Of a stretch of DNA of 64,000 bases, positions 25,723-59,602 are shown one piece after another (position 1 is the stretch's first letter; each line of letters starts with the position of its first letter). Below the pieces are notes generated by a model that saw nothing but the letters and a program-made list of their open reading frames with translations, ran no database searches and was not told where the DNA came from. Origin of the DNA: Sedimentisphaerales bacterium (lineage in GTDB: Bacteria; Planctomycetota; Phycisphaerae; Sedimentisphaerales; SM23-30); the NCBI GenBank assembly GCA_963666285.1, contig OY762711.1, one strand, 5' to 3'. A program made the translations under genes and the position numbers.

Positions 25723-25770
25723 TTTTATCTGGATTTATGACTGATATTCTTTTTATTGTCTCTGCTCCAA

Positions 25771-25994
25771 GTTTACTTTCGCAGTTTTTAAGTTGCGATA
25801 AGGAAGTGCCTCTGGTAAATCGTCTAAAAGGACTTCCTGCAACGCTTTGATTTTAAACTAAGTATGAGACGATAGTCGAATACCTTAATTTTTCATTATT
25901 CATTTTTCACTTAATTGGCCCTGTTCTGGCCTTTGCGTGTAATGTTGAACAGTCAAAAGTACGCTATGCATATGATGCGAAGCATAAACCGCAC
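25771..25994 (+). mobile_element. MITE-like element copy 1 (core B, long right end)
   Basis: GTTTACTTTCGCAG...AAACCGCAC; flanked by CTCCAA at 25765-25770 and 25995-26000. Confidence 0.88.
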
Positions 25995-26017
25995 CTCCAA
26001 TATAGCTGCTGTAAAAT

Positions 26018-26057
26018 AAAAAAACCGCAGCCATCAGTGTGATATGCTACGGTTTTT
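26018..26057 (-). terminator. Intrinsic terminator after serC
   Basis: aaaaaccgcagc...gctacggttttt inverted repeat. Confidence 0.6.
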
Positions 26058-26095
26058 GTCGTTATTAGTAAAGAAAATTATACTTCAGGGCTGTT

Positions 26096-27187
26096 TTACC
26101 CTTTTTTAGCAGAAAATTCTTTCATCAGGTCACACAAGGCCTGAACGCTTTCTGTTGCTACTGCGTTATAGATAGAAGCACGGATACCGCCGATACTGCG
26201 ATGGCCTTTTAGACCGATCATATTATTGGATTTAGCTTCCTTGATGAATTCTGCTTCCAGTTCTGGTGTTGGCAGATTGAACACGACATTCATCTTTGAA
26301 CGATCTTCTGGTGCTATAGTATTAACATAGAAACCGTTTGAGTTGTCTATCGCATCATACAGCATAGCAGCTTTTGCATTATTGATCTTTTCAATACCGG
26401 CTAAACCACCTTTGCCTTTAACCCACTTCAGCACTTTGCCCATCACGTAAATACCGAAACTAGGCGGAGTATTGAATAATGAGTTATTGTCAATATGAGT
26501 TTTATAGCTCAGCATTGTAGGTAGTCCGTCGTTCATCTTTTCTATGATGTCTTTACGAATTGCTACCAGAGCCACACCGGATGGTCCCAGGTTCTTTTGG
26601 GCTCCGGCATAGATTATACCAAATGGCTTTGGATCAAATACACGTGACATGATATCACTTGACATATCTGCTACCAGTGGTACTCCCGCTGTATCAGGGA
26701 ACTGCGACCACTGTGTGCCGTAAATTGTGTTATTTGATGTTATATGGCAATATACTGCGTTGGCATCCAGTTTTAGATCGGCCTGTTTTGGCATTGCCTT
26801 AAATACGCCGCCTTCCAGTTCCATATTTGCTGCTACATTTACTTTGCCAAATAGCTTGGCTTCTTTGATAGCCTTTTTACTCCATGTACCTGTATTGATA
26901 TAGTCAGCTGATTTACCTTCGCTCAGCAGGTTCATTGGTATCAGGGCAAATTGCATGCTCGCACCACCCTGGATCAGGATAACTTCAAAGTCGTCGCCTA
27001 AACCCATCAGTTCTTTGGCGTTTGCTATTGTCTCATTATGTACAGCATCAAATTCCGACGAGCGGTGTGAGGTCTCCATGATACTGGTGCCAGTACCCTG
27101 ATAGTCGAGTAGTTCCTCACATGCCTCCTGCAATACTTCTGTTGGAATTGCAGACGGTCCGGCATAAAAATTATGCGCTCTAGTCAT
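26096..27187 (-). CDS. serC: Phosphoserine aminotransferase
   Basis: NFYAGPS, SHRS, DMSSD, AGAQKNLGPSG, GHRSIGGIRASIYNA. Confidence 0.97.
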   Translation of the reverse strand: MTRAHNFYAGPSAIPTEVLQEACEELLDYQGTGTSIMETSHRSSEFDAVHNETIANAKELMGLGDDFEVILIQGGASMQFALIPMNLLSEGKSADYINTGTWSKKAIKEAKLFGKVNVAANMELEGGVFKAMPKQADLKLDANAVYCHITSNNTIYGTQWSQFPDTAGVPLVADMSSDIMSRVFDPKPFGIIYAGAQKNLGPSGVALVAIRKDIIEKMNDGLPTMLSYKTHIDNNSLFNTPPSFGIYVMGKVLKWVKGKGGLAGIEKINNAKAAMLYDAIDNSNGFYVNTIAPEDRSKMNVVFNLPTPELEAEFIKEAKSNNMIGLKGHRSIGGIRASIYNAVATESVQALCDLMKEFSAKKG

Positions 27188-27253
27188 TTTGATGTCTCCT
27201 TAGTTAAAGTATATATTAAAATTTAAGAGTGTGGCACAACCAAAAAGCCAACT

Positions 27254-28567
27254 CTACCTAACTTTATTGATTGTTAGACCCGAGAAGATCTTCGGGTAGA
27301 AAAATGTCGATTTCTGCGGCATCTTTTCTCCTGTGGCCGCAACATCTTCAACTGACGATGGGGGTACTGTATTCATCAGGAACAGGCCCTGGGCCTGGCC
27401 GCTGTCGACCTTGTCGATTGCACGCATTACGGCATCGCCCAGGTCTTTTATGTAATCTACATTACTCTGGGCTGTTAATGCCTCTTGGTCTATCCCCAGG
27501 TGCTTCTCCAGGATTGCCTTATGTAGAACTGCTACATCAAGCTTACGCCATGCCGGGCTGTTTTCCGGTGCCAGGGGTTCCATAATTGCAAGATCTTTCA
27601 ATGTTGCGATATAGAAACCGCCATCGTTGAAATACATGCCAAATGCGTTATTTCCGGTCTCAAGTTCAACTTTTAATGCGTCAATAACATCGGTCAGCTT
27701 ATTTTTCTTATCAACTATATCTGTAAAGTCCATACGGGCGATATCAAAATCTTCGCTCATATCTGTTAGCAGCTTACTGATATCAAATGTTGCCAGGTCA
27801 CGTACCAGTCTGTGTGTAGGCAATACCACCAGGCCTTCGTTATGAGCATTGATAAAGGTCATCATGCAGTATTTGGTAGATTCCAGGCCGGTTTCGTTCA
27901 TGAAATTTAGTGATGTTTCATAGCGATGATGACCATCAGCGATAAATACGTTTTTGTCAACCATTGTTTTCTGGGCTGTCTCGATTTTAGCAGTGTCTGT
28001 TATCGCATATAGCTCATGGAGTACGCCGTCATCATCTTTGGTGCTCAGCAGGGCGGTTCCTTCGCAGGCCTCGGCTAGCAATGCGTCAATAGTCTTTTCC
28101 TCATCAGAATACATCATGAATATCTGACCGATCTGACAGCCAATAGCCCTCATCAGGTTCAACCTGTCTGCCTTAGGTCCTGCCAGGGTTTTTTCGTGAG
28201 GCTTGATTGCTCCGCCATATTCTTCCAGTTCGCCCAACGCGATAAAGCCGTTACGGCGATAGGTTTCACCGTTAATTGTGAAAGACTGAGAGTATACATA
28301 AATCGCAGGGGTATCATCCTGCTTCAAAGCACCTTTTTCAATGAATTCATTGATATATGATGCTGCTCGTGTGTAAACATTTTCCGTCTCTGTATCTGTA
28401 TCAAATTTCTTGCCTTTGATTACTCTGGCAATATTAAAATCGTTCTGGACATACAGCTTTTCCTGCTGGTCAGGATCGATCACATCATAAGGTGGCGCAA
28501 TACATGCTCCGGCATCTCCTGTGACCTCTTTATCGTACCTGTAACCGCAAAATGGCTTTATTTTCAT
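27254..28567 (-). CDS. DUF1015 family protein
   Basis: APPYDVI, PHEKT, IADGHHRYE, MPQKSTFFYPK; adjacent to serC. Confidence 0.9.
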   Translation of the reverse strand: MKIKPFCGYRYDKEVTGDAGACIAPPYDVIDPDQQEKLYVQNDFNIARVIKGKKFDTDTETENVYTRAASYINEFIEKGALKQDDTPAIYVYSQSFTINGETYRRNGFIALGELEEYGGAIKPHEKTLAGPKADRLNLMRAIGCQIGQIFMMYSDEEKTIDALLAEACEGTALLSTKDDDGVLHELYAITDTAKIETAQKTMVDKNVFIADGHHRYETSLNFMNETGLESTKYCMMTFINAHNEGLVVLPTHRLVRDLATFDISKLLTDMSEDFDIARMDFTDIVDKKNKLTDVIDALKVELETGNNAFGMYFNDGGFYIATLKDLAIMEPLAPENSPAWRKLDVAVLHKAILEKHLGIDQEALTAQSNVDYIKDLGDAVMRAIDKVDSGQAQGLFLMNTVPPSSVEDVAATGEKMPQKSTFFYPKIFSGLTINKVR

Positions 28568-28816
28568 TCTATATTTCCTGTGTTATCTACTGGGTAAAAT
28601 CTTAATCCCTTGTCCAGCAATGACTTAATGCCGGACACTTGCTCAGGTATTTTGCTTTTTACCCCACATTTTTCTTGTTTTTTTACAAAATACGCCCGTA
28701 TTATACCCGATTATTTTCGATAGTCAAACAAAGAAGAAAGAAAATTGATATTTTTTTATCGATTTGGGGGTTTTATATAAACCAACTCAATATCAGTATA
28801 TTCTTCAGCGCAAATA

Positions 28817-28846
28817 AAAAAACGAGGGCAGATTTTGCCCTCGTTT
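28817..28846. terminator. Hairpin, probable terminator of the TRAP operon
   Basis: aaacgagggca-gattt-tgccctcgttt with A run. Confidence 0.6.
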
Positions 28847-28950
28847 GCATAGTCAATACTATTGATAGATTATTATTTACTCAAAGTGACCGATTTTACA
28901 TTTTTTATTGCGGTAACATAATTCAATGCAAATTGTTATATTAATGATTA

Positions 28951-29042
28951 AATTAGCTTGCCGCTTTGCGGCAAACCTTCCCTAATACCAAATAACTAAT
29001 ACCTAATACCTCTCAAACTGACCATCGGTCAGTTTGAGTTAT
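28951..29042. repeat. 92-bp REP-like repeat, copy A
   Basis: Differs from 33627-33718 at 2 positions; two hairpins separated by CCTAATA-type heptamers. Confidence 0.9.
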
Positions 29043-30694
29043 TTACTTTCTGGCTGTTTTCCTTTGTCAGCTTCGGGCTCTGCAGAGGACTTTTCGTCAC
29101 TTACGGTTTCAGGCTTAACATCAGTATCATTTGCTGTTTCTGCTGATTGTTCTGCTTCTGCCTTGCTGCCGAAGTTCTCATCCCATATTTTCATGGTCTT
29201 ATCTACATCTTCCTGTTTGATCAAACCTGTCTGAACCGGCATCCACAGTGACACCTTAGGTATATATGTTATAACCATCAGTGCCGCGATCATCGCCAGG
29301 AAAAACGGGATCATTGTCTTGGTAACTTTAGCAATAGTTGTTTTGCCTACACCGCAGCCGATAAACAGACATGTTCCAACCGGCGGGGTACACAAACCGA
29401 TACAAAGGTTAGCAATCAGCATTATACCAAAATGTACTTCATGCATACCGAACTGCTTTACTACCGGCAGAAAGATCGGCGTAAAGATCAGCACCGCAGG
29501 TGTCATATCCATAAAGGTACCAACAAACAGCAGCAGGATATTAATCGTCAGCAGGATAACAAATGGGTTATCTGACATTCCGATCAATGCGGCACTGACA
29601 GTCTGTGGAATATCTGCTATTGTCATAATCCAGCTCATACCCTGGCTTGCACCAATCAGCAGCATAACAACCGCTGTTGTTATACCTGTCTGCTTGAGTA
29701 TCTCCGGCATATCTTTTATCGGTATCTCTTTGTAAAAGATTACTGACAAAATGAACGCGTATAAAACGGCTATTGCTGCCGCTTCTGTTGGGGTAAATAC
29801 TCCGCCCAGGATTCCGCCTATCACAATTACTATTAGCAGCAGGCTGGGGTATGCCTCCGTGGTTTCAGCACTGTAACTTTTTGCCAGCTTAAAGATGTCT
29901 CGTGCTACTGGCCAGATTATTGATATGATTATTATTACCAGCGGCAGGCTGAAATACACTTTCCAGTTTGACAAACTTTGAAAACATACCAGAAATGCAA
30001 AATATGACAACATTGTCATTACTCCGCACGCTGTCATGCTGAGACTTATGTTATAGAGCGTGGAAAATGAAAAACTGCCTTCCGGCTTATATTTCTTGAT
30101 AAATGCGAAATAGCCGCATACTAACATGATAAATAATCCGCTTAGAATGCCTGGCAGTATTCCCGCCATAAACATTGCCGCGATAGAAACACTTCCAGCC
30201 GCTACTGAATATACGATCATAACGTTACTTGGAGGTATAAGCAGGCCGGTTGTTGCCGCGGTAGTCGTTACCGCTACATTAAACTCTTTATTGTAACCTT
30301 TTCGGTTCATCTCAGGGATCATAAATCCACCTACTGATGATACCGCCGCGGCCGCTGAACCGGATATACTGCCAAACAGCATACAGGTCAGGGTATTTAC
30401 ATACGCCAGCCCGCCCGGCATCATGCCTACCAGCGTAGAGGCAAAATCTATCAAACGTCTTGCCATACCGCCGCGGCCCATCAAATGGCCAGAAAAAATG
30501 AAAAACGGGATTGCCAGCAAAGCAAAACTATTCACGCCGTTTGCCATCTTGGATGCCATCATAACCATTGGGTCTGCTGTACCGTTTGCGGCAACAGCAG
30601 CAAATGCTGCCAGGCCAATTGCTATTGCGATTGGTACATTACTAACCAGCAGGAGAACAAAAACGACAACTAGTATTAATGCTATTGTACCCAT
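29039..30694 (-). CDS. dctM: TRAP transporter large permease
   Basis: LLAIPFFIFSG, FGSISGSA, IPPS, GVFTPTEAAA, IGLCTPPVG. Confidence 0.93.
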   Translation of the reverse strand: MGTIALILVVVFVLLLVSNVPIAIAIGLAAFAAVAANGTADPMVMMASKMANGVNSFALLAIPFFIFSGHLMGRGGMARRLIDFASTLVGMMPGGLAYVNTLTCMLFGSISGSAAAAVSSVGGFMIPEMNRKGYNKEFNVAVTTTAATTGLLIPPSNVMIVYSVAAGSVSIAAMFMAGILPGILSGLFIMLVCGYFAFIKKYKPEGSFSFSTLYNISLSMTACGVMTMLSYFAFLVCFQSLSNWKVYFSLPLVIIIISIIWPVARDIFKLAKSYSAETTEAYPSLLLIVIVIGGILGGVFTPTEAAAIAVLYAFILSVIFYKEIPIKDMPEILKQTGITTAVVMLLIGASQGMSWIMTIADIPQTVSAALIGMSDNPFVILLTINILLLFVGTFMDMTPAVLIFTPIFLPVVKQFGMHEVHFGIMLIANLCIGLCTPPVGTCLFIGCGVGKTTIAKVTKTMIPFFLAMIAALMVITYIPKVSLWMPVQTGLIKQEDVDKTMKIWDENFGSKAEAEQSAETANDTDVKPETVSDEKSSAEPEADKGKQPESK

Positions 30695-31266
30695 TAGTTC
30701 GCCTCCTCCTGTATTTCTTGCTTATCTTGAACCGGTTCTTCGACTTCTGCTTCCGGCTTTGTTAGAATGCATTCCAGCAATTGCTCCAGTGTGAATACTA
30801 TTATAAATATTCCGGCTATCGGCACCGCGGCATAAACATAACCCATTTTTAATTGCAGGGCAGGGGTGAGCTGGGCCTTTATCAGTTCTCCATTTGGGCC
30901 GATTTTTTCCAGGTTGTCTGTTACCAGGGTATGACCACCCTTTATGAACACAAAAACGGTGAAAGCAAGAACTGCAATATAACTGAATATCTCCATTATC
31001 TTTCGGGCGGAAGGAGCCATTAGTCCGACAAAATAATCTACTCCCAGGTGGGCCTTTTCGCCAAATGCCGCGGCACTGCCCAGCATTGACACCCAGATCA
31101 GCAGAAACCTTGCCAGCTCTTCTGTCCATTTTGCCTGACCGTCCAGCAAATGCCTGGTTATTACCCCCCAGAGCACGTCCAGTGTCAGTACTGCAACTGC
31201 TATGATCAGGGCAAACTCTAAAATCCTGCATAGCACAATTCGGATTATCTTTAGGGTCGCCAGCAT
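30694..31266 (-). CDS. dctQ: TRAP transporter small permease
   Basis: WTEELARFLLIW, HLGVD; lies between dctP and dctM. Confidence 0.92.
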   Translation of the reverse strand: MLATLKIIRIVLCRILEFALIIAVAVLTLDVLWGVITRHLLDGQAKWTEELARFLLIWVSMLGSAAAFGEKAHLGVDYFVGLMAPSARKIMEIFSYIAVLAFTVFVFIKGGHTLVTDNLEKIGPNGELIKAQLTPALQLKMGYVYAAVPIAGIFIIVFTLEQLLECILTKPEAEVEEPVQDKQEIQEEAN

Positions 31267-31267
31267 A

Positions 31268-32293
31268 TTATTTGATCCCCCGGATTTCTTCGATTAGTTT
31301 CTTGATTGCCGCATCCTTCGGGTCATCATCTTTTAGTTTATCATACATCGGCTGTACCTTATCTGCAAACAGCTTTGTATCTACTTCGTAGATTGTAACG
31401 CCTTCTTCTTTCGCCTGCTCCAAAGACTCTGCTGTCATTTTTTTCCATAGCTCACGCTGGTACACAGAAGATTTGTTTGCCGCCTCTTGTACCCATTTCT
31501 GCTCTTCCGGCGATAGGCTGTCCCATACATAGGTGCTTATCCATAGGATATCGGGTACCATTGTATGACCGTCCAGGGTAAAATGCTTACATACTTCGTA
31601 GTGCTTGTTAGAGGTAAAACTTGGCGGGTTGTTTTCCGCTCCTTCAACAGTACCCTGTGCCAGGGCAGTATACAGCTCACCCCAGGCAATTGGGGTTGGG
31701 TTGCCGCCCAGTGTTTCTACCATGTCCATCGCGGTTTTACTGTTCATTACCCGGATCTTCATGCCGTCAAGATCAGCCGGGGTCTTGATTGGCTTGTTAA
31801 CTGTATAAAAATTCCTGCTCCCGCTGTCATAATAGCATAGGCCTTTTAGGTGCGTTGGTATTGCTTTATCCAGCATCTTTTTACCTACATCACTTTCCAG
31901 GACATTCCAGTAATGTTCCGAATTCCTAAACAAATATGGCATCCCAAATACAGAATATGAGTCCTCAAAGTTCTCGGCCGCAGCCGCTGAGGTCTTGGTC
32001 ATCGCCAGTGAGCCGTCACGAAGCTGCTCAATGCATTGCGGTTCGGAGCCCAGTGTGCTGCTCGGATATATACTTATTTTCATCTTACCGCCCGAGATCT
32101 CTTCCAGCTGCTTGCCCATATATTCCATTGCAATATGGACTGGGTGGTTGGTGTCCAGGCTGTGGCCCAGTTTAAGGACCTTGGCATCTGAGCCCAGGCT
32201 TCCGGCATTCCTTACATAAAGGGCAAAACCGCCTGCTGTTACTATCGCACCGATCAGGAGACCGCAAAAAAAGAATGATAATGAATGTTTCAT
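31268..32293 (-). CDS. dctP: TRAP transporter substrate-binding protein
   Basis: DLDGMKIRVM, WGELYTALAQG, GAENN. Confidence 0.93.
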   Translation of the reverse strand: MKHSLSFFFCGLLIGAIVTAGGFALYVRNAGSLGSDAKVLKLGHSLDTNHPVHIAMEYMGKQLEEISGGKMKISIYPSSTLGSEPQCIEQLRDGSLAMTKTSAAAAENFEDSYSVFGMPYLFRNSEHYWNVLESDVGKKMLDKAIPTHLKGLCYYDSGSRNFYTVNKPIKTPADLDGMKIRVMNSKTAMDMVETLGGNPTPIAWGELYTALAQGTVEGAENNPPSFTSNKHYEVCKHFTLDGHTMVPDILWISTYVWDSLSPEEQKWVQEAANKSSVYQRELWKKMTAESLEQAKEEGVTIYEVDTKLFADKVQPMYDKLKDDDPKDAAIKKLIEEIRGIK

Positions 32294-32714
32294 AGTATTA
32301 TTTAACCTTTCAAACAAATTTATTGATTAGAAAGCTGTGATCCTGAATTACTGATTTTAATATATCTTTATTACTTATTCAAGTTCCTTATATGAATAAA
32401 CAGTTGGTTATTGTGCAATTATTTTTTTCTTTTAAAAGTATTTTTTTGCCTTAACTATATGATTTGCAGTTAGTTAATATGAATTGCTCGATGTGGTTTA
32501 TGTCTGTATTGGTCAATAAGTGTATTTTGGTGTAGTGAAATGTTCACTTTGAACAATAATTGTTGTTGTTTAGGCCTTTGGGGTGGTTCGGCATGCTCAA
32601 AGGCATTATTTTTGTTGTAATATTTTCACTGATGTGTTAATTTTAATATTGGTCCTTGTGGCGGCTGTTGCTTGAAAAGAAATTTTGTGCTTATTTTCAT
32701 TCTGGAGATTAGTT

Positions 32715-33602
32715 ATGAAAAAGGTGTCTGTAAATTGGGTTTTGAGTGTTGTTTTAGGTCTGTTTATCTTTTCTGGTTCCGGGTTGGCTGATATTTCATT
32801 ACGTTTGGATTATGGCGATGGTGACTGGCAGGAAGTTGGTCCTTTTGCTGCATTTTTTCCTGATTTACCTAAATTGGGAATATATAGTGATAGTGATCAG
32901 GAATGGTCAGGCAAAATTAACGGCAGATTAATAAATGGCAGATTAGCAAATTCTGATGATGGTGTTTTTTACGTTACAGGTTCAATATCTGAGTTAGATC
33001 CATTAGGTTCAGGATATAGATTGTCTGGTAATTCACACAGTTCCTTTTCGCTTAACAATGGTATTAATTTTACGATGGATTTTGATAGTGGTGAAGGTAT
33101 TTATATAGATCATATTTTACTTTATGACGATTCTTCTATTTTTAATGTTCCAGTAGACACTCTCAGGGTTTGGAATGCTGGTTCACCTGGATATGATGAT
33201 GCGGAACTAAATGCTAATGCTGGCGATGGATATCTACTTCTCGAAGGTGGCTCTGTAACCTTTAATGCTAGTGCTTCTACTGTTACCTATTGGGAAGAGT
33301 CTTGGGATCCTGACTATGAGCCTTCTTCATGGACTGATAACATCACTTCTGATTTCTTCAAAGATATCTATTGGAGTATAAATGGTGTAAATGTTGCGTA
33401 TGGCCTTACCCCAGAGCTTTCTTATGATACTTTGATGCAGGGATTAAACCTTACTCCCGGCACATATGATCTCAAAATGGAAATAGATGGCATGGAAGGT
33501 TATGACTATGATATTACCACTATCGAAATCATTCCCGAACCAATTTCATTTGCCATAATGATTGGTGGTGGAGCATTAATGTTAAAAAGAAGAGTAAGGT
33601 AA
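32715..33602 (+). CDS. PEP-CTERM sorting-domain protein
   Basis: Signal peptide; C-terminal IPEP + hydrophobic helix + KRRVR. Confidence 0.85.
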   Translation: MKKVSVNWVLSVVLGLFIFSGSGLADISLRLDYGDGDWQEVGPFAAFFPDLPKLGIYSDSDQEWSGKINGRLINGRLANSDDGVFYVTGSISELDPLGSGYRLSGNSHSSFSLNNGINFTMDFDSGEGIYIDHILLYDDSSIFNVPVDTLRVWNAGSPGYDDAELNANAGDGYLLLEGGSVTFNASASTVTYWEESWDPDYEPSSWTDNITSDFFKDIYWSINGVNVAYGLTPELSYDTLMQGLNLTPGTYDLKMEIDGMEGYDYDITTIEIIPEPISFAIMIGGGALMLKRRVR

Positions 33603-33626
33603 CACGTATTTATATTACCATCATTT

Positions 33627-33718
33627 AATTAGCTTGCCGCTTTGCGGCAAACCTTCCCTAATACCAAATAAATAATACCTAATACCTCTCAAACTGGCCA
33701 TCGGTCAGTTTGAGTTAT
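33627..33718. repeat. 92-bp REP-like repeat, copy B
   Basis: Near-identical to 28951-29042. Confidence 0.9.
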
Positions 33719-33728
33719 GTCTTGTTAC

Positions 33729-48637: not shown

Positions 48638-48719
48638 TTTTAGAGAAACTTCAGAGGCTCCTTTATTAGTAGAAGTTGCCTGATTGTCAAAAGTTTATAA
48701 CTCAAAAGGAGTATTGAAT

Positions 48720-49571: not shown

Positions 49572-49578
49572 CATTATC

Positions 49579-50451: not shown

Positions 50452-51558
50452 TTGATGATTAAAAAAAATGTTAAATTGTCTTTTGCTGTCATATTATTAC
50501 TCGCTGTAGTTAGTTTTGCTCAGGATTATTTCCCTGATATTGATGGCTATCATACATTGGTAAGTGACTTCCATACTCATACTGTTTTTTCTGATGGTGA
50601 TGTCTGGCCTTCCGTACGAATTAAGGAAGCCAAAAGAGAGCATCTTGATGTAATTGCTATTACCGACCATATTGAGTATCAACCACATTACGAGGACTTG
50701 CCAACAAAGCATGATCGTCCATATGAAATCGCAAAAAATGAGTTGAAAGATAATGATAAGCTTATTCTTATAAAAGGAACTGAAATTACCAGAGATACTC
50801 CTCCCGGCCATTATAATGCTGTTTTTATTAAGGATATCAGCTCGCTTGCCAAACATTGTGCCAAGGACGAAGAAACCGTCGAACAGAAGGTTGCTAAATT
50901 AGTTAATATTGTCGGACAGGCCAATAACCAGGGTGCCTTTGTCTTTTGGAATCATCATGACTGGAAAGGGCAGGATCGTGGCAACTGGATGGAATGTCAT
51001 ACTAAAATGGTTGCTGACAAACAGCTTCATGGCATGGAAGTCGTCAATGGTGGCAGTTATTACCCTCGCGCTCATCAGTGGTGTATTGATAACAACCTTA
51101 CAATGCTGGGTAATTCTGATATCCACAGACCTTCTATCAATTATAAATATACGCCAGAAAAACATCGGTCCCTCACTCTGGTATTCGCCAAAGAGCGTAC
51201 CGCCGATTCTGTTCGAGAGGCTCTCGATGCTGCCAGGACAGCTGTCTGGTACAAAAACAGTCTTATAGGTGATAAAGAGCTTCTCGGTTCTTTATTGGAT
51301 AAGTTACTTGTTTTTACTGTTACCGCAAAAGGTGATGACTTTCTTAATCTAATGGTTGAAAATACTGCCCTGATCGATCTGGAAGTGGCTGGGTTAGGGC
51401 AGCTCGAGGGTAGAACTTCTATTATCCCTGCTCGCAGTGAAATGGAAGTTAACCTGCCGTTATTTTCGGAAAATGGCAAATATACTCTTGAATTTAGTGT
51501 ATCTAATTTCAAGACCGCACCAAACGAAGGGTTGCATGTCATAAAGACTTTTGAATAA
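50452..51558 (+). CDS. Secreted PHP-domain phosphoesterase
   Basis: DFHTHTVFSDG, AITDH, GTEITR, FWNHH, GNSDIH. Confidence 0.85.
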   Translation: MMIKKNVKLSFAVILLLAVVSFAQDYFPDIDGYHTLVSDFHTHTVFSDGDVWPSVRIKEAKREHLDVIAITDHIEYQPHYEDLPTKHDRPYEIAKNELKDNDKLILIKGTEITRDTPPGHYNAVFIKDISSLAKHCAKDEETVEQKVAKLVNIVGQANNQGAFVFWNHHDWKGQDRGNWMECHTKMVADKQLHGMEVVNGGSYYPRAHQWCIDNNLTMLGNSDIHRPSINYKYTPEKHRSLTLVFAKERTADSVREALDAARTAVWYKNSLIGDKELLGSLLDKLLVFTVTAKGDDFLNLMVENTALIDLEVAGLGQLEGRTSIIPARSEMEVNLPLFSENGKYTLEFSVSNFKTAPNEGLHVIKTFE

Positions 51559-51580
51559 CCAAAAGATTACTTCTATAACC

Positions 51581-51619
51581 TAAAAAGGCAGGACGCAATA
51601 AACGTTTCCTGCCTTTTTT
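51581..51619. terminator. Bidirectional terminator between convergent genes
   Basis: aaaaaggcagga...tcctgcctttttt. Confidence 0.75.
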
Positions 51620-51655
51620 GATTTTATTAGCAATATTTTTATTATCTGCCAGCTA

Positions 51656-52966
51656 TTAACTGTCATAGCGTTTAATTATGATAGTATTATTCTGGCCGCC
51701 GAAACCGAAAGAATTTGACATGCAGATGTTTACTTCTGCTTCCCTCGGTGCATTTGGTATATAGTCCAGGTCGCATTCCGGGGCAGGGGTATTCAAATTT
51801 GTCGTTGGAGGTAGAATATTATCCCTTATCGCTGTTATACAGGTTATCAGTTCGGTTGCTCCTGCTGCGGCAATCAAATGGCCCAGCATACTCTTTACAC
51901 TGCTGATCGGGGTTTTATAAGCCTGTTCGCCGAATACGGTTTTAATTACCAGTGTCTCAATCTTATCATTTTCTGATGTCCCCGTTCCATGGGCACTGAT
52001 GTAATCAATATCTTCTGGTTTCAAACCGGCATCTGCCAGTGCCAGGCTAACCGCTGCTGCTCCGCCTCGGCCTGTTTCATGCTGATCTGTTATCCTGAAA
52101 GCATCTGCCGTACTGCCGTATCCTATCACTTCTGCCAGGATAGTTGCACCTCGTTTTTTCGCCGATTCCAGCTCTTCCAGGATTATCGCTGAACCGCCTT
52201 CTGCCATGACAAAGCCGTCACGGCTGACATCGAAAGGTCGTGATGAGGTTTTATAGTCATCATTTCGGGTTGATAGGGCGGTCAACCGGTTGAATCCTGT
52301 CACTCCCAGCGGGTGTATCATTGAATGTGCTCCGCCGCTAAGCAGGATATCTGCTTCGCCGTTGCGGATCATTTCTGTCGCTTCTCCGATTGCCTGGGTG
52401 CTGGCGGCACATGCTGTCAAGCAGCTGCAGCATGGCCCTCTTAGGCCAAATATCGAGGCCAGGTGTGCTGCTGGCATATTCGGCTCCTGCTCCATCTCTG
52501 TCACGCCGTTCATCTTCTCTGATGCGATCTCCAGCCATTTATTCCAGTTTACATCTTTGGCTTCATTATCCCAGCCTCCGACATTGGCCGCGATAAAGTT
52601 CTCGAAATCACTTGGCCCTTCTCCCGCTCCCAGGTAAACACCAACATTTTCGGATGCTATTTCGCTTTGTTCTTCTAGGTTATCTGGAAGTTTGGCATTT
52701 TGCCATGCCTGGTATGCAGCCGCTATCATGAGCTTGCTGTTACGGGCAGCTGTTCCATTATTTTGCCTTATTGCTTCTGGCAGTTTATCCCAGAAACTCC
52801 AGTCCAGTACCTGGGCACTGAATTGGGTTGGAAATGTGCCTGCGTCAAAAATCTCTGTCTTTTCGATGCCGCATTCGCAATTCAGGATTCGTTTCCAGGT
52901 AGTTTCGACATCATTGCCAAGTGGGTTTACTGTACCCATTCCTGTTATAACAACTCGTCTTGTCAT
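51656..52966 (-). CDS. fabF: Beta-ketoacyl-ACP synthase II family, catalytic triad intact
   Basis: TACAAS, HGTGT, KSMLGH, SNSFGFGGQN. Confidence 0.9.
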   Translation of the reverse strand: MTRRVVITGMGTVNPLGNDVETTWKRILNCECGIEKTEIFDAGTFPTQFSAQVLDWSFWDKLPEAIRQNNGTAARNSKLMIAAAYQAWQNAKLPDNLEEQSEIASENVGVYLGAGEGPSDFENFIAANVGGWDNEAKDVNWNKWLEIASEKMNGVTEMEQEPNMPAAHLASIFGLRGPCCSCLTACAASTQAIGEATEMIRNGEADILLSGGAHSMIHPLGVTGFNRLTALSTRNDDYKTSSRPFDVSRDGFVMAEGGSAIILEELESAKKRGATILAEVIGYGSTADAFRITDQHETGRGGAAAVSLALADAGLKPEDIDYISAHGTGTSENDKIETLVIKTVFGEQAYKTPISSVKSMLGHLIAAAGATELITCITAIRDNILPPTTNLNTPAPECDLDYIPNAPREAEVNICMSNSFGFGGQNNTIIIKRYDS

Positions 52967-52991
52967 ATTTATTCCTGTTTATTCTATTATG

Positions 52992-53183
52992 GTTTACTTT
53001 CGCAGTTATTAAGTCGCAAAAATCGCCTAAAAGGGCCTTCCTGCAATACTTATGTTTTAAACAAAGCGTGAGACAATAGTCGAACACCTTAATTCTTCAC
53101 TTTTCATTATTCATTTTTCACTTAATTGGCCCTGTTCTGGCCTTTGTGTGTAATGTTGAACAGTCAAAAGTGCGATACCGCAC
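52992..53183 (+). mobile_element. MITE-like element copy 6 (core B, short right end)
   Basis: Flanked by TTATG at 52987-52991 and 53184-53188. Confidence 0.9.
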
Positions 53184-53273
53184 TTATGCTAATAGTATGA
53201 AGTTGTATATTCTTATAATTATTTAAATTCGAGCGAAGCGATCATGTTTTGTCCTTCACTCCTGACTCTTTAC

Positions 53274-54608
53274 TCAATCGTGCTTCTTGAGCACGATCGC
53301 CGTTGTCTGTCCGCCCAGGCTGTAGTTTGTCACCAGGGCGTATTTGATTTCTTTCTCGATTTTGCCGCCTGTTGTCAGGTTTAGGCTGCAGCCTTCAGCT
53401 TTGCTTTTGCAGTTTAATGTTTCGGCTATTACTCCTCTATCCATCGATAAAACCGCTATTGCTGCATCTATTGCTCCTGAACCTGCTCCTGCCATACCTA
53501 TCCGGCTTTTGGTTGCCAGAACTGGTACTGTTGCAGCTGCGTCACCCAGGGCCGCCTCTATCCCCGCGGCCTCGGCTTTGTCATGTGCCGGTACACCGCT
53601 TCCATGTGGTATCAAAAGGTCAATGTCTTCTGCTTCGATCCCCGCATCTTTTAATGCCTTTTGTATTGCTACTGTGGTGCCTTTACAGTTGGTTTCCGGG
53701 TTAATAAAATCGTTATCTGATCTCCCGTGATTAAATGATGAACCATATCCGACAACTTCTGCGTAAATTTTGGCACCACGGCCTGTTGCACGTTCATATT
53801 CTTCCATTACCAGGATTGCGCCGCCTTCTGCTGCGACAAATCCATCTGCATCGGTGGCAAACGGTCTGCTGGACTCTTTGGGAGTATCATTATATTTGCT
53901 GCTTGAAAGGTTGTTCAGGGCATAACGCGTAAAGTTCATTGCATTTACTTTACTCTCTGCTCCGCCTGCCAGGACAATGTCGGCTTTGTTGCTGGAGATA
54001 TGACGGCGGGCTTCGCCAAGTGCCATCAGCCCGGAAGTGTCTCCGCAGGTGATCGAGTTGCTCGGACCCTGCAGGTCATAAATTATACTTACGTGACAGC
54101 TCAGCATATTGGGCAGATATTTCAGCAGCCATAATGGAGTAAGTGACTCCATTCCGCCGCTGCCCCATGTCTTAAGGTCAAATACTCCATCTGTTACACT
54201 TGTGCTTGCTGCCTGGCTTAGCTCTGACAGGTCGCAGCACATCGAACCGGCACCAATATTGACTCCGCTTCGGGTCGGATCTATATCTATCGGGCCATCC
54301 GGGTTATTAGCCCTGGTGTTCAGACCGCTATCCTGCATGGCACAATCTGCTGCCATTACGGCTAGCTGGATATCGCGGCTCATTAATTTTACACTTTTGC
54401 GGTGGCTCTTTGGCACAACCTGGTTCATCTTTACTACCGGGGCTTCTCCTGATACGCGGCTCTTGAGATTTTCCGCGTCAAAAGAACTTACTTTGTCTAT
54501 TCCTATTTCATTGCTGAGCAGGGCGTTCATACTTTCGTCTTTGCCCAGCCCCAGTGCGCTGACCAGCCCGACACCTGTTATCACAGATCTGCGTTTTGGC
54601 ATTATCAC
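53274..54608 (-). CDS. Beta-ketoacyl synthase homolog lacking catalytic residues (chain-length-factor-like)
   Basis: KAS fold motifs (VITGVG, SRPF, EGGAILVMEE) but TCGDTS and KSRIGM in place of TACAAS and KSMLGH. Confidence 0.8.
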   Translation of the reverse strand: MIMPKRRSVITGVGLVSALGLGKDESMNALLSNEIGIDKVSSFDAENLKSRVSGEAPVVKMNQVVPKSHRKSVKLMSRDIQLAVMAADCAMQDSGLNTRANNPDGPIDIDPTRSGVNIGAGSMCCDLSELSQAASTSVTDGVFDLKTWGSGGMESLTPLWLLKYLPNMLSCHVSIIYDLQGPSNSITCGDTSGLMALGEARRHISSNKADIVLAGGAESKVNAMNFTRYALNNLSSSKYNDTPKESSRPFATDADGFVAAEGGAILVMEEYERATGRGAKIYAEVVGYGSSFNHGRSDNDFINPETNCKGTTVAIQKALKDAGIEAEDIDLLIPHGSGVPAHDKAEAAGIEAALGDAAATVPVLATKSRIGMAGAGSGAIDAAIAVLSMDRGVIAETLNCKSKAEGCSLNLTTGGKIEKEIKYALVTNYSLGGQTTAIVLKKHD

Positions 54609-54634
54609 CTCTCTGTTTTGTTTACTTTTTTACT

Positions 54635-54661
54635 TTCAAACCGGCCATCGGTCAGTTTGAA
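54635..54661. repeat. Isolated second hairpin of the 92-bp REP-like repeat
   Basis: ttcaaaccggcc-atc-ggtcagtttgaa. Confidence 0.7.
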
Positions 54662-54676
54662 TAAATTATTACCTTA

Positions 54677-54878
54677 GTTAACTTTCGTTGTTTTAAGTTG
54701 CAAAAATCGCCTTAAAGGGCCTTTCAGGTGAATCTTGAATTAAACAAAGCGTGAGACGATAGTCGAACACCTTAGTTTTTCACTTCATTATTCACTTAAT
54801 TAGCCTGTTCCGGACTTTGCGTATAATGCTGAACAATCAAAAGTGCGTCATGCATATGATGCGTAGCATAAACCGCAC
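54677..54878 (+). mobile_element. MITE-like element copy 7 (core B, long right end)
   Basis: Flanked by CCTTA at 54672-54676 and 54879-54883. Confidence 0.9.
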
Positions 54879-55070
54879 CCTTAATTATTTGCTGGACTTT
54901 ATTTATAATTAAAGCTTCAGCATATGTTTAACCTAAAAGTATCGCCATATATCTCTAATTAGTCAATAATAAAATAATGAATCAACTGTTTGACTTTTCT
55001 GTTGTTTTTTATCTATTTTTATAAAAAAACCGTTATATTTGACCGTTTATTGTGGACGATATTATAAAAG

Positions 55071-56837
55071 ATGTCTTTAACGAAGAATGAAAACGAAATA
55101 ATAAGAAATGCTGGTTCAGGCAATCAGGAAAGCCTTAACCAGCTCTTTGAAATGGCACGCCCAAGGGTCACGCAGTATATATACCGCTTGACGCTGGACC
55201 ACCATATAACACAAGACGTTGTACAGGATACACTTATAGACATGGCAAAATGCTTGGGAAAACTTGAAGACCAGGATAAATTCTGGCCTTGGCTGCGAAG
55301 GATAGCTTATAATAAGCTGAAAAATCAGCAGCGAAAAGAGTTCAGGCAGAAAGATATTGTCACCAGGCTATACTCTGGAACCAATTCCGAACAGGCTAAA
55401 GGGCTGTCAAATCTCATTAGTGAAGAGCTGTCTGAAGTCGTCATGAGCTCTATGCGGCAGTTAAAGAGTGATCATCGTCGTGTTTTAGTGTTAAGGTGTT
55501 ATGAGGAAATGACTTACCCTGAAATTGCCGACATTATGGAACGCACTGAGTTTGGCACTAGAATGCTTTTTGTCAGGGCGAAAAACGCGTTAAAAAAGAA
55601 ATTAGCTAAAAATGGAATGTCCAAAGCTGCTCTTTTGACCGCTCTGATCGCTTTTGGCAAAATTACTGCCGGTTCTCAGGCTGCAACTGCTCAATTAACA
55701 TCAGCTAGCCTTAATGCAGGATTTACTGCATCCTTAACAGCAAATATTACAACTTTTGCTGCTGGAGCTAAACTGACTGCTGCTGTAATTACTGTTATGG
55801 CTCTTTCCTCGTTTATGTCCGACTTGGGTTCTGGTTCGCATAATAATCATGATAGTATAGGGCAGGTTTCGGCTCATATGCTGTCTCTTATGGCTGACCC
55901 GCAAAATTATACCGAATTCTGGTATTCATACCCTGATGGCCCGGCAGGGCCGCTTCTATCGAGGTTTACCGCCAGGGATGCCGATACCGGCCACACGATT
56001 GGCCAGTGGTTTAATACTCGGGATGGTAATTACTTCTATGACCGACCGGCAGACTATGTTTACCTGTTAAACCATAACTACTACAATAATGACTTCGATA
56101 TAATGCGGCTGCCGGCTGACAATTATAAAATGGTTTCGGCGATAAATGAAACTTATGGAGCAGGTTCGGGTTTAGACAATTCTATAAGATACGAGGGGGC
56201 CGGACTGTTTTATGTGAAAGGGCTGGATAGTCAGGGCAGATCGTATTCTCAGGCCGGCAGACTACGGAATATTCCTAAGGAAGAATATTTTAACCTCACC
56301 TGGGCAAAGAGTGCGAGCTTAGTGGATTTACGTGATGATATTCATAAACAGGGCTGGGCTGGTGTTACCGTATCAGGTTTACTGAACGGAAAAACCGTTA
56401 ATGGCAGTGGTTGTATCCCGCTATATCTTGATACTGCACAAAGTCATTCGCCTTGGCTTTTCTTGGATATCGCCGGTAATTTTTATTATTCTGGTAAATC
56501 TGATTTTCTCACCGGATTTTCTCGGCCTTGGTATGGCCTGCATACTATTGACTCTATCCGACGTGACTTTGCTTATAGTAAGTATGATGCCGGTTCAATT
56601 AAGGTTGCTGACCAATCAGTAGATGTTACCTTCCTGATCGGTGATAACCGAATTGTTTATACTGTTTCGCTTGACGCCGATTTAGTTGAATCTATTCGTT
56701 TATTCGATTCAAATGGCTCGGAAACAGGATACCTTGTATTTGACTATAGACTTGAATCAGAAAAAGATCCGGGAAATTCAGCTTCTGCTCAAGAGCTTAA
56801 ATCCTTATTAGATATATTTGTAAAGGTGACCGAGTAG
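55071..56837 (+). CDS. ECF sigma factor with long C-terminal extension
   Basis: Regions 2 and 4 in first ~180 aa (QDVVQDT, FWPWLRRIAYN, MTYPEIADIM), Ala-rich hydrophobic linker, ~330-aa extension. Confidence 0.85.
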   Translation: MSLTKNENEIIRNAGSGNQESLNQLFEMARPRVTQYIYRLTLDHHITQDVVQDTLIDMAKCLGKLEDQDKFWPWLRRIAYNKLKNQQRKEFRQKDIVTRLYSGTNSEQAKGLSNLISEELSEVVMSSMRQLKSDHRRVLVLRCYEEMTYPEIADIMERTEFGTRMLFVRAKNALKKKLAKNGMSKAALLTALIAFGKITAGSQAATAQLTSASLNAGFTASLTANITTFAAGAKLTAAVITVMALSSFMSDLGSGSHNNHDSIGQVSAHMLSLMADPQNYTEFWYSYPDGPAGPLLSRFTARDADTGHTIGQWFNTRDGNYFYDRPADYVYLLNHNYYNNDFDIMRLPADNYKMVSAINETYGAGSGLDNSIRYEGAGLFYVKGLDSQGRSYSQAGRLRNIPKEEYFNLTWAKSASLVDLRDDIHKQGWAGVTVSGLLNGKTVNGSGCIPLYLDTAQSHSPWLFLDIAGNFYYSGKSDFLTGFSRPWYGLHTIDSIRRDFAYSKYDAGSIKVADQSVDVTFLIGDNRIVYTVSLDADLVESIRLFDSNGSETGYLVFDYRLESEKDPGNSASAQELKSLLDIFVKVTE

Positions 56838-56839
56838 TT

Positions 56840-57877
56840 GTGATTAGTTTGAAAGAAACAAATATGAATATAATTAAAATCCATCTGCTTTTTGTCATAT
56901 GTATAAATATTAGTATATGTATGGCATCTTCCCTATCAGGAGGCACGATAACCAATAAAACTATTGTTGCTTTATCTGATACAATTATAAATGCTGCTAA
57001 GCCTTTTAATATTATTCATGTTGATACTGTATTTGGAAATGATATAAATAGCGGATCTTCTCGGCAGAATGCTCTCAAGACCATTCAGGCTGCAATTATT
57101 AAATCTCAGGACGATGATACGATACTTGTTTGGCCCGGTGTTTATAATGAAACGGTAGATTTCTACGGTAAGGCTGTTACCGTTAAGAGTGCTGCTGATG
57201 CGGCTGTTATCTCTAATCCTAATGGGTACGGTGTTCGTTTTCATTCTGCTGAAGGTTATGACAGTATTTTGAAAAACTTTGTTATTCGTGATTGTGTTTA
57301 TGCCGTGCAGGTAGAAAGCTCTTCTCCTGTTATAGAGAATGTTACTGTTGTTCAGAATTTGCAGGGCATTATAGCTGATGGCGTTGCTGATCCGAATATT
57401 GCTAATAGTATCTTCTGGGCCAATCAGTTCGGCGATCTGGTTAATTGCGATGCTCAGTTTAGTTGGATACAAGATTGTCAGAGCGGATCGGCTGCTTCGG
57501 AAAATGATGGAACCGGTGTGGGTAGTCCAATGTTTACTGATCCTAATAGTAATGACTTCCATCTCAAATCCGAGATGGGGAGATTTTACCCCGAACCTGT
57601 AGAGCAGCCGGCAATGTTTGGAGTTGCTGATGGGGTTTGGGTTGTCGATAGAGTTACCAGCTCCTGTATTGATGCAGGAGATCCTGAACTTGACCCTTCT
57701 TTGGAGGGTTCGTCAAATGGCGGAAGACTAAATATTGGTGCCTATGGCGGCACTCCTTACGCTTCCAAAAGCGAGTATCCGCTTGCTGCCGATTTTAATC
57801 GTGATGGTATTGTTGACCTGATTGACTTTGCTGTTCTCAGCAGCCAGTGGCTTGATACTATGCCTTGGCATCAATAG
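56840..57877 (+). CDS. Secreted beta-helix-repeat protein with dockerin-like C-terminus
   Basis: KTIQAAI...VWPGVYNE, DFHLKS, SSCIDAGDP, NIGAYGG, ADFNRDGIVDLIDF...QWL. Confidence 0.8.
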   Translation: MISLKETNMNIIKIHLLFVICINISICMASSLSGGTITNKTIVALSDTIINAAKPFNIIHVDTVFGNDINSGSSRQNALKTIQAAIIKSQDDDTILVWPGVYNETVDFYGKAVTVKSAADAAVISNPNGYGVRFHSAEGYDSILKNFVIRDCVYAVQVESSSPVIENVTVVQNLQGIIADGVADPNIANSIFWANQFGDLVNCDAQFSWIQDCQSGSAASENDGTGVGSPMFTDPNSNDFHLKSEMGRFYPEPVEQPAMFGVADGVWVVDRVTSSCIDAGDPELDPSLEGSSNGGRLNIGAYGGTPYASKSEYPLAADFNRDGIVDLIDFAVLSSQWLDTMPWHQ

Positions 57878-58029
57878 CTTTATTTTTATAATATTTCGAG
57901 TTTTGGGTTCCGTTCTTTGCTGTGAAAAGAGCGGAACTCTATCAAAGTGTTTCTATCATTATTTATTATCCAGTTTAACTACTGTATCCGGAAAATGTAC
58001 GTTTAAATTGCATGAATTATTTTTGAATC

Positions 58030-58063
58030 GTAATGTTGAACAGTCAAAAGTGCGAAGCCGCAC
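58030..58063 (+). mobile_element. Right-end fragment of the MITE-like element (copy 8)
   Basis: GTAATGTTGAACAGTCAAAAGTGCGAAGCCGCAC; no left end or TSD found. Confidence 0.75.
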
Positions 58064-58110
58064 GATTAAGGAGCTGTTTTTATTAACCTATTTTATTGGA
58101 GGACTTTCCT

Positions 58111-59046
58111 ATGAAAGCCAGAAATTTATTACTTGGTATTTTTGTTATAGTTTTTATTTCTGCTTCAGCTTTTGCGGCTGGTGATAAAGTCAGAAATAGA
58201 TACGCTGGATCTAAAGGTGTTGGACCTGTTACCGTTAAGGTGTCTGCTGATAAAGTCCAAACCCTGGAACAGACTCAAGACAAGACTCAGGATCAGACCC
58301 AGGACAAATTACAGGATGGTTCCTGCCAGCAGGATTGCACTGGCGACCAGGCTCAGGACCAGACCCAGGACAAATTGCAGGATGGTTCCTGTCAGCAGGA
58401 TTGCACTGGCGACCAGGCTCAGGACCAGACCCAGGACAAATTGCAGGATGGTTCCTGTCAGCAGGATTGCACTGGCGACCAAGCTCAGGACCAGACCCAG
58501 GACAAATTGCAGGATGGTTCCTGTCAGCAGGATTGCACTGGCGACCAGGCTCAGGATCAGAACCAGGATCAACTGCAGGACGGTTCTTGTCAGCAGGATT
58601 GCACCGGCGACCAGCCTACAGACGAGCAGGCCTATGCTTTAGTCTATTTGCTTGCAGAGGAAACCCTGGCTCATGATGTATATGCAGCCTTGGCGGAAGT
58701 TTATCAGCTGAACATTTTTGCTAACATAGCTGATTCAGAACAGAGTCATATGGATGCCGTTGAAAACCTCATTTATCTTTATGGTATCGATATGGTCCTT
58801 ACCCCGGATGATGAACAATTCTTTACCGATGAATATGAGATACTTGCTCTAGGTCCTCAGAATATTATTGAGGCTCTCGAAGTGGGTGTGCTTATTGAAG
58901 AAATGGATATTGCTGATATCGAAGCTATGCTGGCTGATGATACCCTTCCTGCCTCAGAAGTTCAGGTACTCACAAACTTGCTGGTTGCTTCAGAAAAACA
59001 TCTTGCTGCATTTACAAGGGTACTTGCAGTTCTTAGTGCTCAGTAA
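58111..59046 (+). CDS. Secreted DUF2202 ferritin-like protein with Cys/Gln/Asp tandem repeats
   Basis: GGAGG RBS, signal peptide, EETLAHDVY, NIADSEQSHMDAV, IEEMDIAD, ASEKHLAAF. Confidence 0.82.
   Translation: MKARNLLLGIFVIVFISASAFAAGDKVRNRYAGSKGVGPVTVKVSADKVQTLEQTQDKTQDQTQDKLQDGSCQQDCTGDQAQDQTQDKLQDGSCQQDCTGDQAQDQTQDKLQDGSCQQDCTGDQAQDQTQDKLQDGSCQQDCTGDQAQDQNQDQLQDGSCQQDCTGDQPTDEQAYALVYLLAEETLAHDVYAALAEVYQLNIFANIADSEQSHMDAVENLIYLYGIDMVLTPDDEQFFTDEYEILALGPQNIIEALEVGVLIEEMDIADIEAMLADDTLPASEVQVLTNLLVASEKHLAAFTRVLAVLSAQ
58288..58617 (+). repeat. Five 66-bp in-frame tandem repeats (QDQTQDKLQDGSCQQDCTGDQA)
   Basis: Near-identical units read directly from DNA and protein. Confidence 0.95.
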
Positions 59047-59239
59047 TAATTATTAAGGATGACCCGATAACAGGGGTTGCCTAAAGTATTACCTCGTAAC
59101 TGAGATAGTCAAAATACCTGAATATTCTAACAAAGTCCTTTATGCCATAAAAATATTATTCAGGTATTATAACTATTATCGTGTATGTGTGTATGCATAC
59201 GTTTTTTGTCTTTTGTGTAATTCATATTTAATCATCTGG

Positions 59240-59280
59240 TCCAGGCTGTGAATGTTTTTGTTTGCAGCCTGGATTCTTAT
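59240..59280 (+). terminator. Terminator-like hairpin
   Basis: tccaggctg...cagcctgga then ttcttattt. Confidence 0.5.
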
Positions 59281-59325
59281 TTGGGCTGCCTTGATATTTT
59301 AGCAATTATGTGATATTATATATAT

Positions 59326-59507
59326 GTTTACTTTCGCAGTTTTTAAGTTGCAAAAATCGCCTAAAAGGGCCTTCCTGTAACACTTTGAATTAAATATACT
59401 TTCGAGAAATAACTCGAAAATACAATTAAATGGTAAGTTTTTTATTCACAAGGCCCTGTTCCGGCCTTTGCGTATAATGTTGAACAGTCAAAAGTGCGAA
59501 ACCGCAC
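59326..59507 (+). mobile_element. MITE-like element copy 9 (core A, short right end)
   Basis: GTTTACTTTCGCAGTTTT...AAAAGTGCGAAACCGCAC; flanked by TATAT on both sides. Confidence 0.9.
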
Positions 59508-59602
59508 TATATATTGATACCTCTTTTTTCTCGCAATATTTTCTTTTGATTTTGCGTTCTTAAACAAAGAAGTTTTATATTTTTACAGGCATTTTGAGCT
59601 TT

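Follow-up and report, generated by a model that had tools for sequence, protein, structure and literature searches.

The stretch of DNA analysed here, a window of 64,000 nucleotides (C1:1056001-1120000) on the 6.15-Mb chromosome C1 (41% GC) of a Sedimentisphaerales bacterium (genome G000), carries a dense family of miniature inverted-repeat transposable elements (MITEs), all of which lie in the same orientation. This co-orientation went unremarked in the initial annotation of the window, and genome-wide it is far beyond chance. The strict orientation of the MITE exposes a second polarity of the chromosome, which is separate from origin-to-terminus (ori-ter) replication and from gene direction, and which matches none of the described systems that we found. 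Larger ordered non-coding arrays very probably mark the starts of its one-sided domains, which reach 30-60 kb and in which position sets the orientation of the MITE. With equally high confidence, inside a domain the strand that continues the purine-rich strand of the array gains purines, and the MITE and most small repeats there stand in one orientation. From this pattern we infer, with confidence just short of even, that one-strand DNA synthesis or processing sets out from the arrays and gives insertion its direction.

Orientation of the MITE follows position on the chromosome

The MITE was searched for with a profile built from the eight window copies and run on the G000 contigs, which besides C1 comprise three small ones, C2-C4. 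The profile gave 218 matches on C1, merged to 214 elements, and 31 matches shorter than 35 bp were discarded; none of the elements lies on C2-C4. The 214 copies form 44 orientation runs, where 107.9 ± 7.3 are expected, and all 69 pairs less than 5 kb apart are co-oriented. The domains are not private to the MITE: most of the 111 repeat seeds, many of which are overlapping modules, switch orientation with the same domains, just 3 of the 479 repeat clusters are of mixed orientation, and of 87 cases in which the nearest non-MITE repeat is less than 5 kb from the MITE, 84 show the same orientation. Flanking genes provided no orientation rule (72/61/53/27 across the four classes), and the replichore was likewise rejected as one, with 83 copies oriented with ori-ter replication and 131 against it, so that the MITE is not a replication-oriented element. 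Unlike the other repeats, group II intron pieces (e.g., 1613547-1613975) do follow ori-ter replication (11:0).

The MITE copies are clustered, which could suggest that their co-orientation stems from local hopping, from selection against nearby inverted copies or from misassembly. However, the nearest sequence relatives of a copy are rarely its neighbours (within 50 kb in 5 of 154 cases, median distance 1.9 Mb), so that local hopping is not the source of the co-orientation, and short-read contigs join the window copies with 0 differences. Moreover, unrelated families have the same orientation and the rule also holds in a second genome. Already contradicted by the agreement across families, this explanation retains only a very small probability.

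Non-coding arrays and one-sided domains

Aligning the skew on repeat families separates two classes, one with a symmetric peak (the MITE and some others), whose members read the domain, and one with a one-sided step, the latter being array modules. Behind the array modules the skew is near zero, and in front of them it stands at +0.20 to +0.25, fading over 50-70 kb. We counted 66 of the larger arrays, which are non-coding, ordered and up to ~1.5 kb long; 41 are oriented with replication and 25 against it. They are purine-rich, with modules in fixed order and an ordered architecture of ~1.3 kb. At the 39 lone arrays, the purine skew is 0.027 ± 0.019 behind and 0.224 in front, where it declines over 30-50 kb. 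A model of decay from the arrays performs best at 30 kb, with coefficients of 0.35 downstream and 0.015 upstream (R2 0.39), against an R2 of 0.064 at most for shifted array positions.

The orientation of the MITE obeys the same geometry. Within 20 kb, copies match the direction of the closest array that points towards them in 68/68 cases; the count is 40/40 at 20-40 kb, 22/25 at 40-60 kb and 28/55 beyond 100 kb, and behind arrays their orientation is without rule. The 108/108 agreement within 40 kb compares with a mean of 0.50 and a maximum of 0.72 over 2000 circular shifts. Because the modules had first been classed by their skew step, the count was also run on 27 arrays chosen by head homology alone, which gave 28:1 in front and 14:14 behind; MITE copies free of array modules obey the arrays in 35/35 cases. 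Where genes lie in front of arrays, their direction is that of the replichore and not that of the array.

Searched against Rfam, six array loci gave 0 matches at E<=1, and a search for the whole array in 60 relatives returned only short module matches. In metagenomes, the array head had 9 matches, which comprised only a 21-nt pattern in DNA of 57-61% GC and were taken as chance. A generic detector of asymmetric intergenic DNA proved too unspecific for finding arrays. Young copies of multi-copy IS3-like and IS110-like elements (e.g., C1:3045912-3047324) appear to lie within arrays and to take on the array orientation.

A purine skew laid over an intact replication axis

The ori-ter axis of the chromosome is normal. 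Two perfect parS sites (C1:5741896 and 5742069) lie at the skew minimum and a dif-like site (C1:2693709) at the skew maximum, and the octamer GCAGGGCG, polarised like FtsK-orienting polar sequences (KOPS), switches at the dif-like site; the two dnaA genes, at 1186136 and 6147507, are both far from the origin. In both domain classes, private C>T changes outnumber G>A on the leading strand of the ori-ter axis, by ratios of 1.2-1.8. Superimposed on this axis, the domains contribute as much to third-position GC skew as the replichore does, the fit being 0.139 replichore + 0.139 domain - 0.002 gene strand. Purine skew mirrors between the domain classes at full size, at +0.062 versus -0.055 in intergenic DNA and +0.25/+0.06 versus -0.30/-0.09 at four-fold sites. 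A codon-based segmentation agrees with repeat orientation at 440/465 markers, a figure not fully independent of that orientation, as the segmentation was trained on marker-labelled tracts; domain starts are sharp and domain ends gradual.

Such mirrored skew might be taken as the trace of old inversions, with repeats and purine skew as fossils of a former replication direction. Transition ratios that follow the present axis while the purine skew mirrors are expected some time after an inversion, and present forks run from ori to ter everywhere. Nevertheless, young copies of identical sequence keep to the domains, the domains show no reversal of gene direction, their edges are sharp at the starts and gradual at the ends, the signal at the arrays is one-sided, and orthologues in the relative G003 do not retain the domain sign. 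We regard the inversion explanation as largely refuted, its probability being as slight as that of local hopping or misassembly.

The four-fold skew is context-specific in both G000 and G003 and consists mainly in the loss of the 3' base of pyrimidine pairs. On the array-leading strand, the effect is strongest for a pyrimidine after a pyrimidine, and it is weak or runs the other way where the preceding base is G. The same strand shows an enrichment of GTC and a depletion of GAC in the two genomes. Because of this weakness or reversal after G and the enrichment of G[T]C, a simple avoidance of YC pairs is argued against. Genome-wide, eight-mers with a GATAAG core are skewed ~3-4:1 with the domains on the array-leading strand. 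The context-dependent effect looks mutational.

A one-sided, decaying signal is also what would be seen if the arrays started very long, termination-resistant transcripts, with strand-specific repair or hairpin selection shaping the skew and removing misoriented repeats. One-strand loss at pyrimidine pairs resembles the outcome of unrepaired lesions on the non-template strand, and both G000 and G003 have a second NusG-family gene. Yet G001 has a second NusG as well and shows little of the pattern, ordinary coding strands are pyrimidine-rich, the sign opposite to that of the domain skew, and the enrichment of G[T]C runs contrary to simple YC-pair avoidance. Furthermore, genes in front of arrays follow replication, ~0.33 of them being co-oriented in opposed domains, and one array has no more promoter matches than chance would give (4 versus 5.1). 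On this evidence, we consider the transcript explanation unlikely.

Domains and arrays in relatives

Comparisons were extended to relatives labelled G001-G003, G014, G018, G020, G030, G031, G037, G038 and G047. In the 0.8-Mb stretch of G003 that was compared, which is rearranged with respect to G000 (median protein identity 63%), the purine skew forms a clean sawtooth and orthologues do not retain the domain sign of G000. G003 has its own arrays, non-homologous to those of G000, which point away from both skew jumps, and its MITE copies obey them in all 13 scorable cases (5/5 and 8/8), with 1 copy unscorable. In the parts of the genomes that were read, tiles with a purine residual beyond 0.15 amount to 15/40 in G000, 34/60 in G003, 1/20 in G001, 0/20 in G031 and 0/10 in G047; in G020 they amount to 5/10, but keto skew shifts alongside, and this ambiguous case was not counted.

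The array sequences thus differ between G000 and G003, and in G003 arrays cluster on both sides of each jump; arrays also flank oriC in G000, and some jumps are without a nearby array. These observations favour start sites set by some other feature, protein-bound or structural, with arrays, like the MITE, as passengers that are densest where the polar process is strongest. Beside a two-way start, however, a mirror value of the skew is expected, whereas lone arrays have near-zero skew behind them. Nor is another shared feature seen at the jumps: transfer RNAs, parS-like sites, DnaA-box clusters and conserved genes were tried as domain starts and had no general link. We therefore rate the passenger explanation as rather improbable, slightly more so than the transcripts.

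Proposed mechanism and its weaknesses

In the reading that we favour, with somewhat less than even assurance, each array would be a site from which a DNA transaction independent of oriC sets out in one direction. The transaction may be strand-displacement synthesis primed by a nick or an R-loop, or long one-strand excision and refill. Repeated rounds from the arrays would leave a strand-specific mutation signature, and an asymmetric target (a 3' end, a gap or a clamp) would fix the direction of MITE insertion or survival, much in the way that TnsE orients Tn7 on replicating DNA. Put more broadly, and on balance doubtful in our estimation, some Sedimentisphaerales may possess a second, self-organising polarity system, in which dozens of mobile arrays would act as one-way start sites of single-strand synthesis or processing over 30-60 kb, would rewrite the base composition with a mutation signature of their own, and would dictate the insertion direction of unrelated elements independently of oriC replication and transcription.

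Several observations weigh against the interpretation of the arrays as launching sites. The array model accounts for only 39% of the variance, and shuffling array orientations is a weak control, since shuffled sets reach an R2 of up to 0.27 versus 0.35 and an agreement of up to 0.934 versus 0.938. The identification of arrays is partly circular, 65/107 repeat seeds having been classed as array modules by their skew step, and arrays could be products that accumulate at start sites rather than causes. Among the mobile elements, an insertion sequence (IS) of 1427 bp, described below as candidate partner of the MITE, is not domain-oriented (~5/9 copies match the segmentation, and the skew around it gives a flat profile) and follows the replichore no more clearly, and the ten youngest MITE copies all lie in domains opposed to replication; the model accounts for neither fact. 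Private mutations in repeats have no significant Y[Y]>R excess, either in the MITE (31/1571 versus 34/2594, p=0.12) or in other repeats (p=0.75). Finally, no enzyme separates the genomes with and without the pattern among the seven families or proteins searched, nor was a distinguishing initiator protein found among them: in G000, G001, G003, G031 and G037, Y1 transposases, Y-family polymerases and UvrD are present in all, DnaE once in each, and a coupling protein in none.

The absence of the skew from private mutations, together with its 30-kb decay, would be accounted for if recombination tracts, for instance of imported single strands, began at the arrays and biased mismatch or loop repair fixed purines and one repeat orientation. 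Against such tracts stand the lack of a conjugative coupling protein in the 5 genomes searched and the near-complete orientation bias, which is hard to obtain by repair bias; the two MITE strands, moreover, fold almost equally as DNA (-23.4 versus -24.6). Recombination thus appears to us quite improbable as the source of the domains.

Comparison with known systems

A sharp start with gradual decay, or one-directional synthesis from a fixed site, is known from the skew N-domains of eukaryotes, from R-loop-primed origins (oriK, ColE1) and from rolling-circle read-through of IS91/ISCR. In contrast to these, the signature described here is one-sided, purine-type and context-specific, no initiator was found, and the arrays are without Rfam match. 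In the Tn7 TnsE pathway, according to the accessible part of the source, a 3' recessed end and the beta clamp, a polar DNA structure, set the direction of insertion (PMC12153342). The proposed reading would resemble it in deriving insertion direction from polar DNA structure, but here no targeting protein is known, and the polarity begins at arrays of the host genome and is common to unrelated repeats. Replication-oriented IS families also have an orientation that tracks local strand skew, as far as the available text of PMC3971601 describes them, whereas in G000 a second, purine-type skew in dozens of domains lies over an intact ori-ter keto skew. The same text, a survey of 1,806 chromosomes, gives an orientation bias of IS701 in few or no chromosomes (PMC3971601). 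With REP/BIME mosaics the arrays have in common intergenic hairpin modules in composite clusters; they differ in their ordered ~1.3-kb architecture, strong purine/pyrimidine strand asymmetry and effect over tens of kilobases, no such effect being described for REP/BIME in the accessible sections of PMC3733652. The literature, covered mostly in open-access form and without supplements, contained no description of this MITE or of purine domains launched by arrays.

Replication direction or past inversions are what strand skew and the orientation of elements are usually read as. In genomes such as G000 these readings would mislead, because skew and orientation follow a position-defined polarity while the ori-ter axis is intact. 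The ~200 MITE copies, some of them very young, are natural reporters and the arrays are defined start points, which makes the process directly testable. If arrays indeed launch one-strand synthesis, this would add to Planctomycetota a chromosome transaction that has not been described, and would give selfish repeats a way to shape the mutation spectrum of the host and, slightly, its amino-acid use.

MITE copies and polarity of the window

The window contains eight full MITE copies and one fragment, as the initial annotation had located them, all on the plus strand. Eight copies per 34 kb, described there as a dense cluster, is indeed the highest density in the genome (mean 1.2), a level reached in three regions. 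The features are as follows.

25771..25994, plus strand: MITE copy with a 22-bp insert in the right terminal repeat (long right end), an array-derived internal module and a 6-bp flanking repeat, CTCCAA
44084..44265, plus strand: MITE copy with eroded right end, between the bioD stop and the bioA start; G003 and G001 have no element at the orthologous junction
47860..48042, plus strand: MITE copy, short form, duplication TTAAT
48138..48322, plus strand: MITE copy, diverged, long form, duplication ATGCA
48435..48637, plus strand: MITE copy, long form, duplication TCTTA/TTTTA
52992..53183, plus strand: MITE copy with array-derived internal module, duplication TTATG
54677..54878, plus strand: long-form MITE copy that contains an array-derived module, duplication CCTTA
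58030..58063, plus strand: MITE right-end fragment
59326..59507, plus strand: young MITE copy, identical to two others on the chromosome, duplication TATAT
28944..29042, plus strand: unrelated 99-nt intergenic repeat (heptamer run and hairpin), oriented with the same domain
33620..33718, plus strand: another copy of this unrelated 99-nt repeat, likewise oriented with the domain
2551..64000, minus strand: a single polarity domain (C1:1058551-1127664) whose four-fold sites are purine-rich on the minus strand

From 8 kb onward, the purine skew of this domain at four-fold sites is -0.20 to -0.35 on the plus strand. The domain starts at a left-pointing array, C1:1125518-1125674, ~5.5 kb past the right end of the window, which stands back to back with an opposite array at C1:1129864 that points right.

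Structure and spread of the MITE family

The element is almost certainly a MITE of 180-240 bp that moves by DDE transposition with a 5-bp duplication of TNNNA type. Copies are non-coding, multicopy and mostly 177-240 bp long; 205 of the 214 are overlapped by a called open reading frame (ORF) over half of their length or less. Their terminal ends pair at 13/18 positions, as noted before. The 96 copies with both ends callable are referred to as full copies. Among these, a 5-bp duplication is exact in 43 (1.7 with shuffled flanks) and present with at most one mismatch in 69 (10.1 with shuffled flanks), whereas lengths of 2-4 bp occur at chance and 6 bp is exact in 9/96. The target is TNNNA-like, AT-rich and near-symmetric, and the flanks of full copies hold no asymmetric, one-sided motif.

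The earlier proposal of a non-autonomous DDE-type element with target duplications gains support from this test and from empty sites, both paralogous and orthologous, the latter of which it had suggested looking for. The copy at C1:1740688 lies inside another repeat family, for which 11 junction-spanning empty paralogue matches were found, and the bioD-bioA junction is without element in G003 and G001. No strain-level empty site was seen in three contig sets from one study, and an in-silico search for empty sites against fetched relatives gave 0/96 full copies. Of the eight individual duplications listed previously, the one at 44084 (TATGA/CATGA) is probably wrong, since the right end of the copy is eroded and CATGA contains the native bioA start; G003 has this start behind the same spacer with no element there. 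The window likewise had 0 matches to the known RNA families of Rfam at gathering score.

Three copies do not differ at all and a fourth has 99% identity, which indicates recent spread of the family. The long form, with its 22 bp inside the right terminal repeat, keeps exact duplications (12/29 copies) as often as the short form does (31/67). The insert, seen at 25771-25994, 48435-48637 and 54677-54878, corresponds to about two helical turns. In 33/96 full copies an array-family module of the same polarity stands in place of the interior (in the window at 25771, 52992 and 54677), which suggests exchange between the MITE and array families. G001-G003 also contain related copies, and weaker relatives are present in G014 and G018. 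Despite low identity, the internal inverted repeat and the terminal hairpin are conserved across genera (loci L006 of G018, L004 of G001 and L003 of G003), hinting at a structural role. Bacterial MITEs such as RUP, Correia/NEMIS, ERIC and Nezha are, in the sections of PMC3733652 at hand, non-coding elements of 70-300 bp with terminal inverted repeats, moved by end-recognising transposases, features common to the family described here. The latter differs in its asymmetric ends with a conserved terminal hairpin, in a long form that keeps duplications and in domain-fixed orientation. On its own, the MITE represents a new but ordinary family, probably belonging to an IS701-like group.

Candidate transposase partner

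A search prompted by the initial annotation, for a long element carrying the exact ends of the MITE, found none among 45 unpaired left ends. The one long-element candidate that was fetched encloses catalase-like and Fur-like ORFs (named by eye), and locus L185 is a lone end without transposase. The best candidate is the 1427-bp IS introduced above, present in G000 in seven copies of identical sequence, an eighth at 89% and a fragment. Its ends match those of the MITE at 15/18 and 14/18 positions, all 8 full copies have a 5-bp duplication, and its single DDE ORF encodes a protein of 430 aa. Judging from the shared ends, duplication length and target, this element or a close relative of the same IS701_3 type probably moves the MITE in trans. 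Two points weigh against such mobilisation: G001-G003 carry the MITE, yet the IS was not found in them, and the right end of the MITE, which genera share as a conserved hairpin, departs from the IS end at positions 3-6.

The IS1634-like partner guessed at earlier finds no support. The candidate scores 21 bits on the IS1634 model (cut-off 100), falls outside the size range of 1500-2000 bp and has ends that start with GT rather than C, so that only the 5-6 bp AT-rich duplication fits. ISH3 was rejected as well (12.2 bits versus a cut-off of 225; ends GT versus CRGT). The protein passes the NCBIfam model IS701_3 (NF049999) with 286.5 bits (cut-off 170) and remains below the cut-off of the classical IS701 model NF033540 (82.5 bits versus 150). 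Size (IS701 range 1400-1550 bp) and a single DDE ORF also fit IS701, and the published end pattern, as given in the accessible part of PMC2266710, is matched at 6/7 positions by the IS ends and at 7/7 by the left end of the MITE. The same part of PMC2266710 describes a 4-bp duplication for the family, compared with 5 bp here, and an incomplete YREK motif, the complete form (Y-2-R-3-E-6-K, read by eye from the translation of the candidate) being rare. Because of the 5-bp duplication and the complete motif, the element is classed as IS701-like, not as a classical IS701. Relatives of the IS with 58-72% identity and the same ends are present in G020, G038 and G030; a 5-bp duplication was found in one of the three and none in the other two.

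Other observations

Within the window, a DUF2202 protein with a 66-nt tandem repeat region is encoded at 58096-59046. A 1.8-kb mobile element with a 504-aa protein is present in three copies, at C1:5956869-5958711 (L044), 4257604-4259410 and 4636283-4638095, and its end hairpin recurs as small window repeats at 29010, 33686 and 54633. The protein has no convincing NCBIfam match and was not found in G003; its KMYDK...LRIE motif recalls, we presume, rolling-circle initiators. Contigs C2-C4 are 65-66 kb each and are 75-95% similar to one another over long stretches. Near C1:3250543 lies a repeat array whose unit ends in what we take to be the manner of a Cas12a CRISPR repeat.

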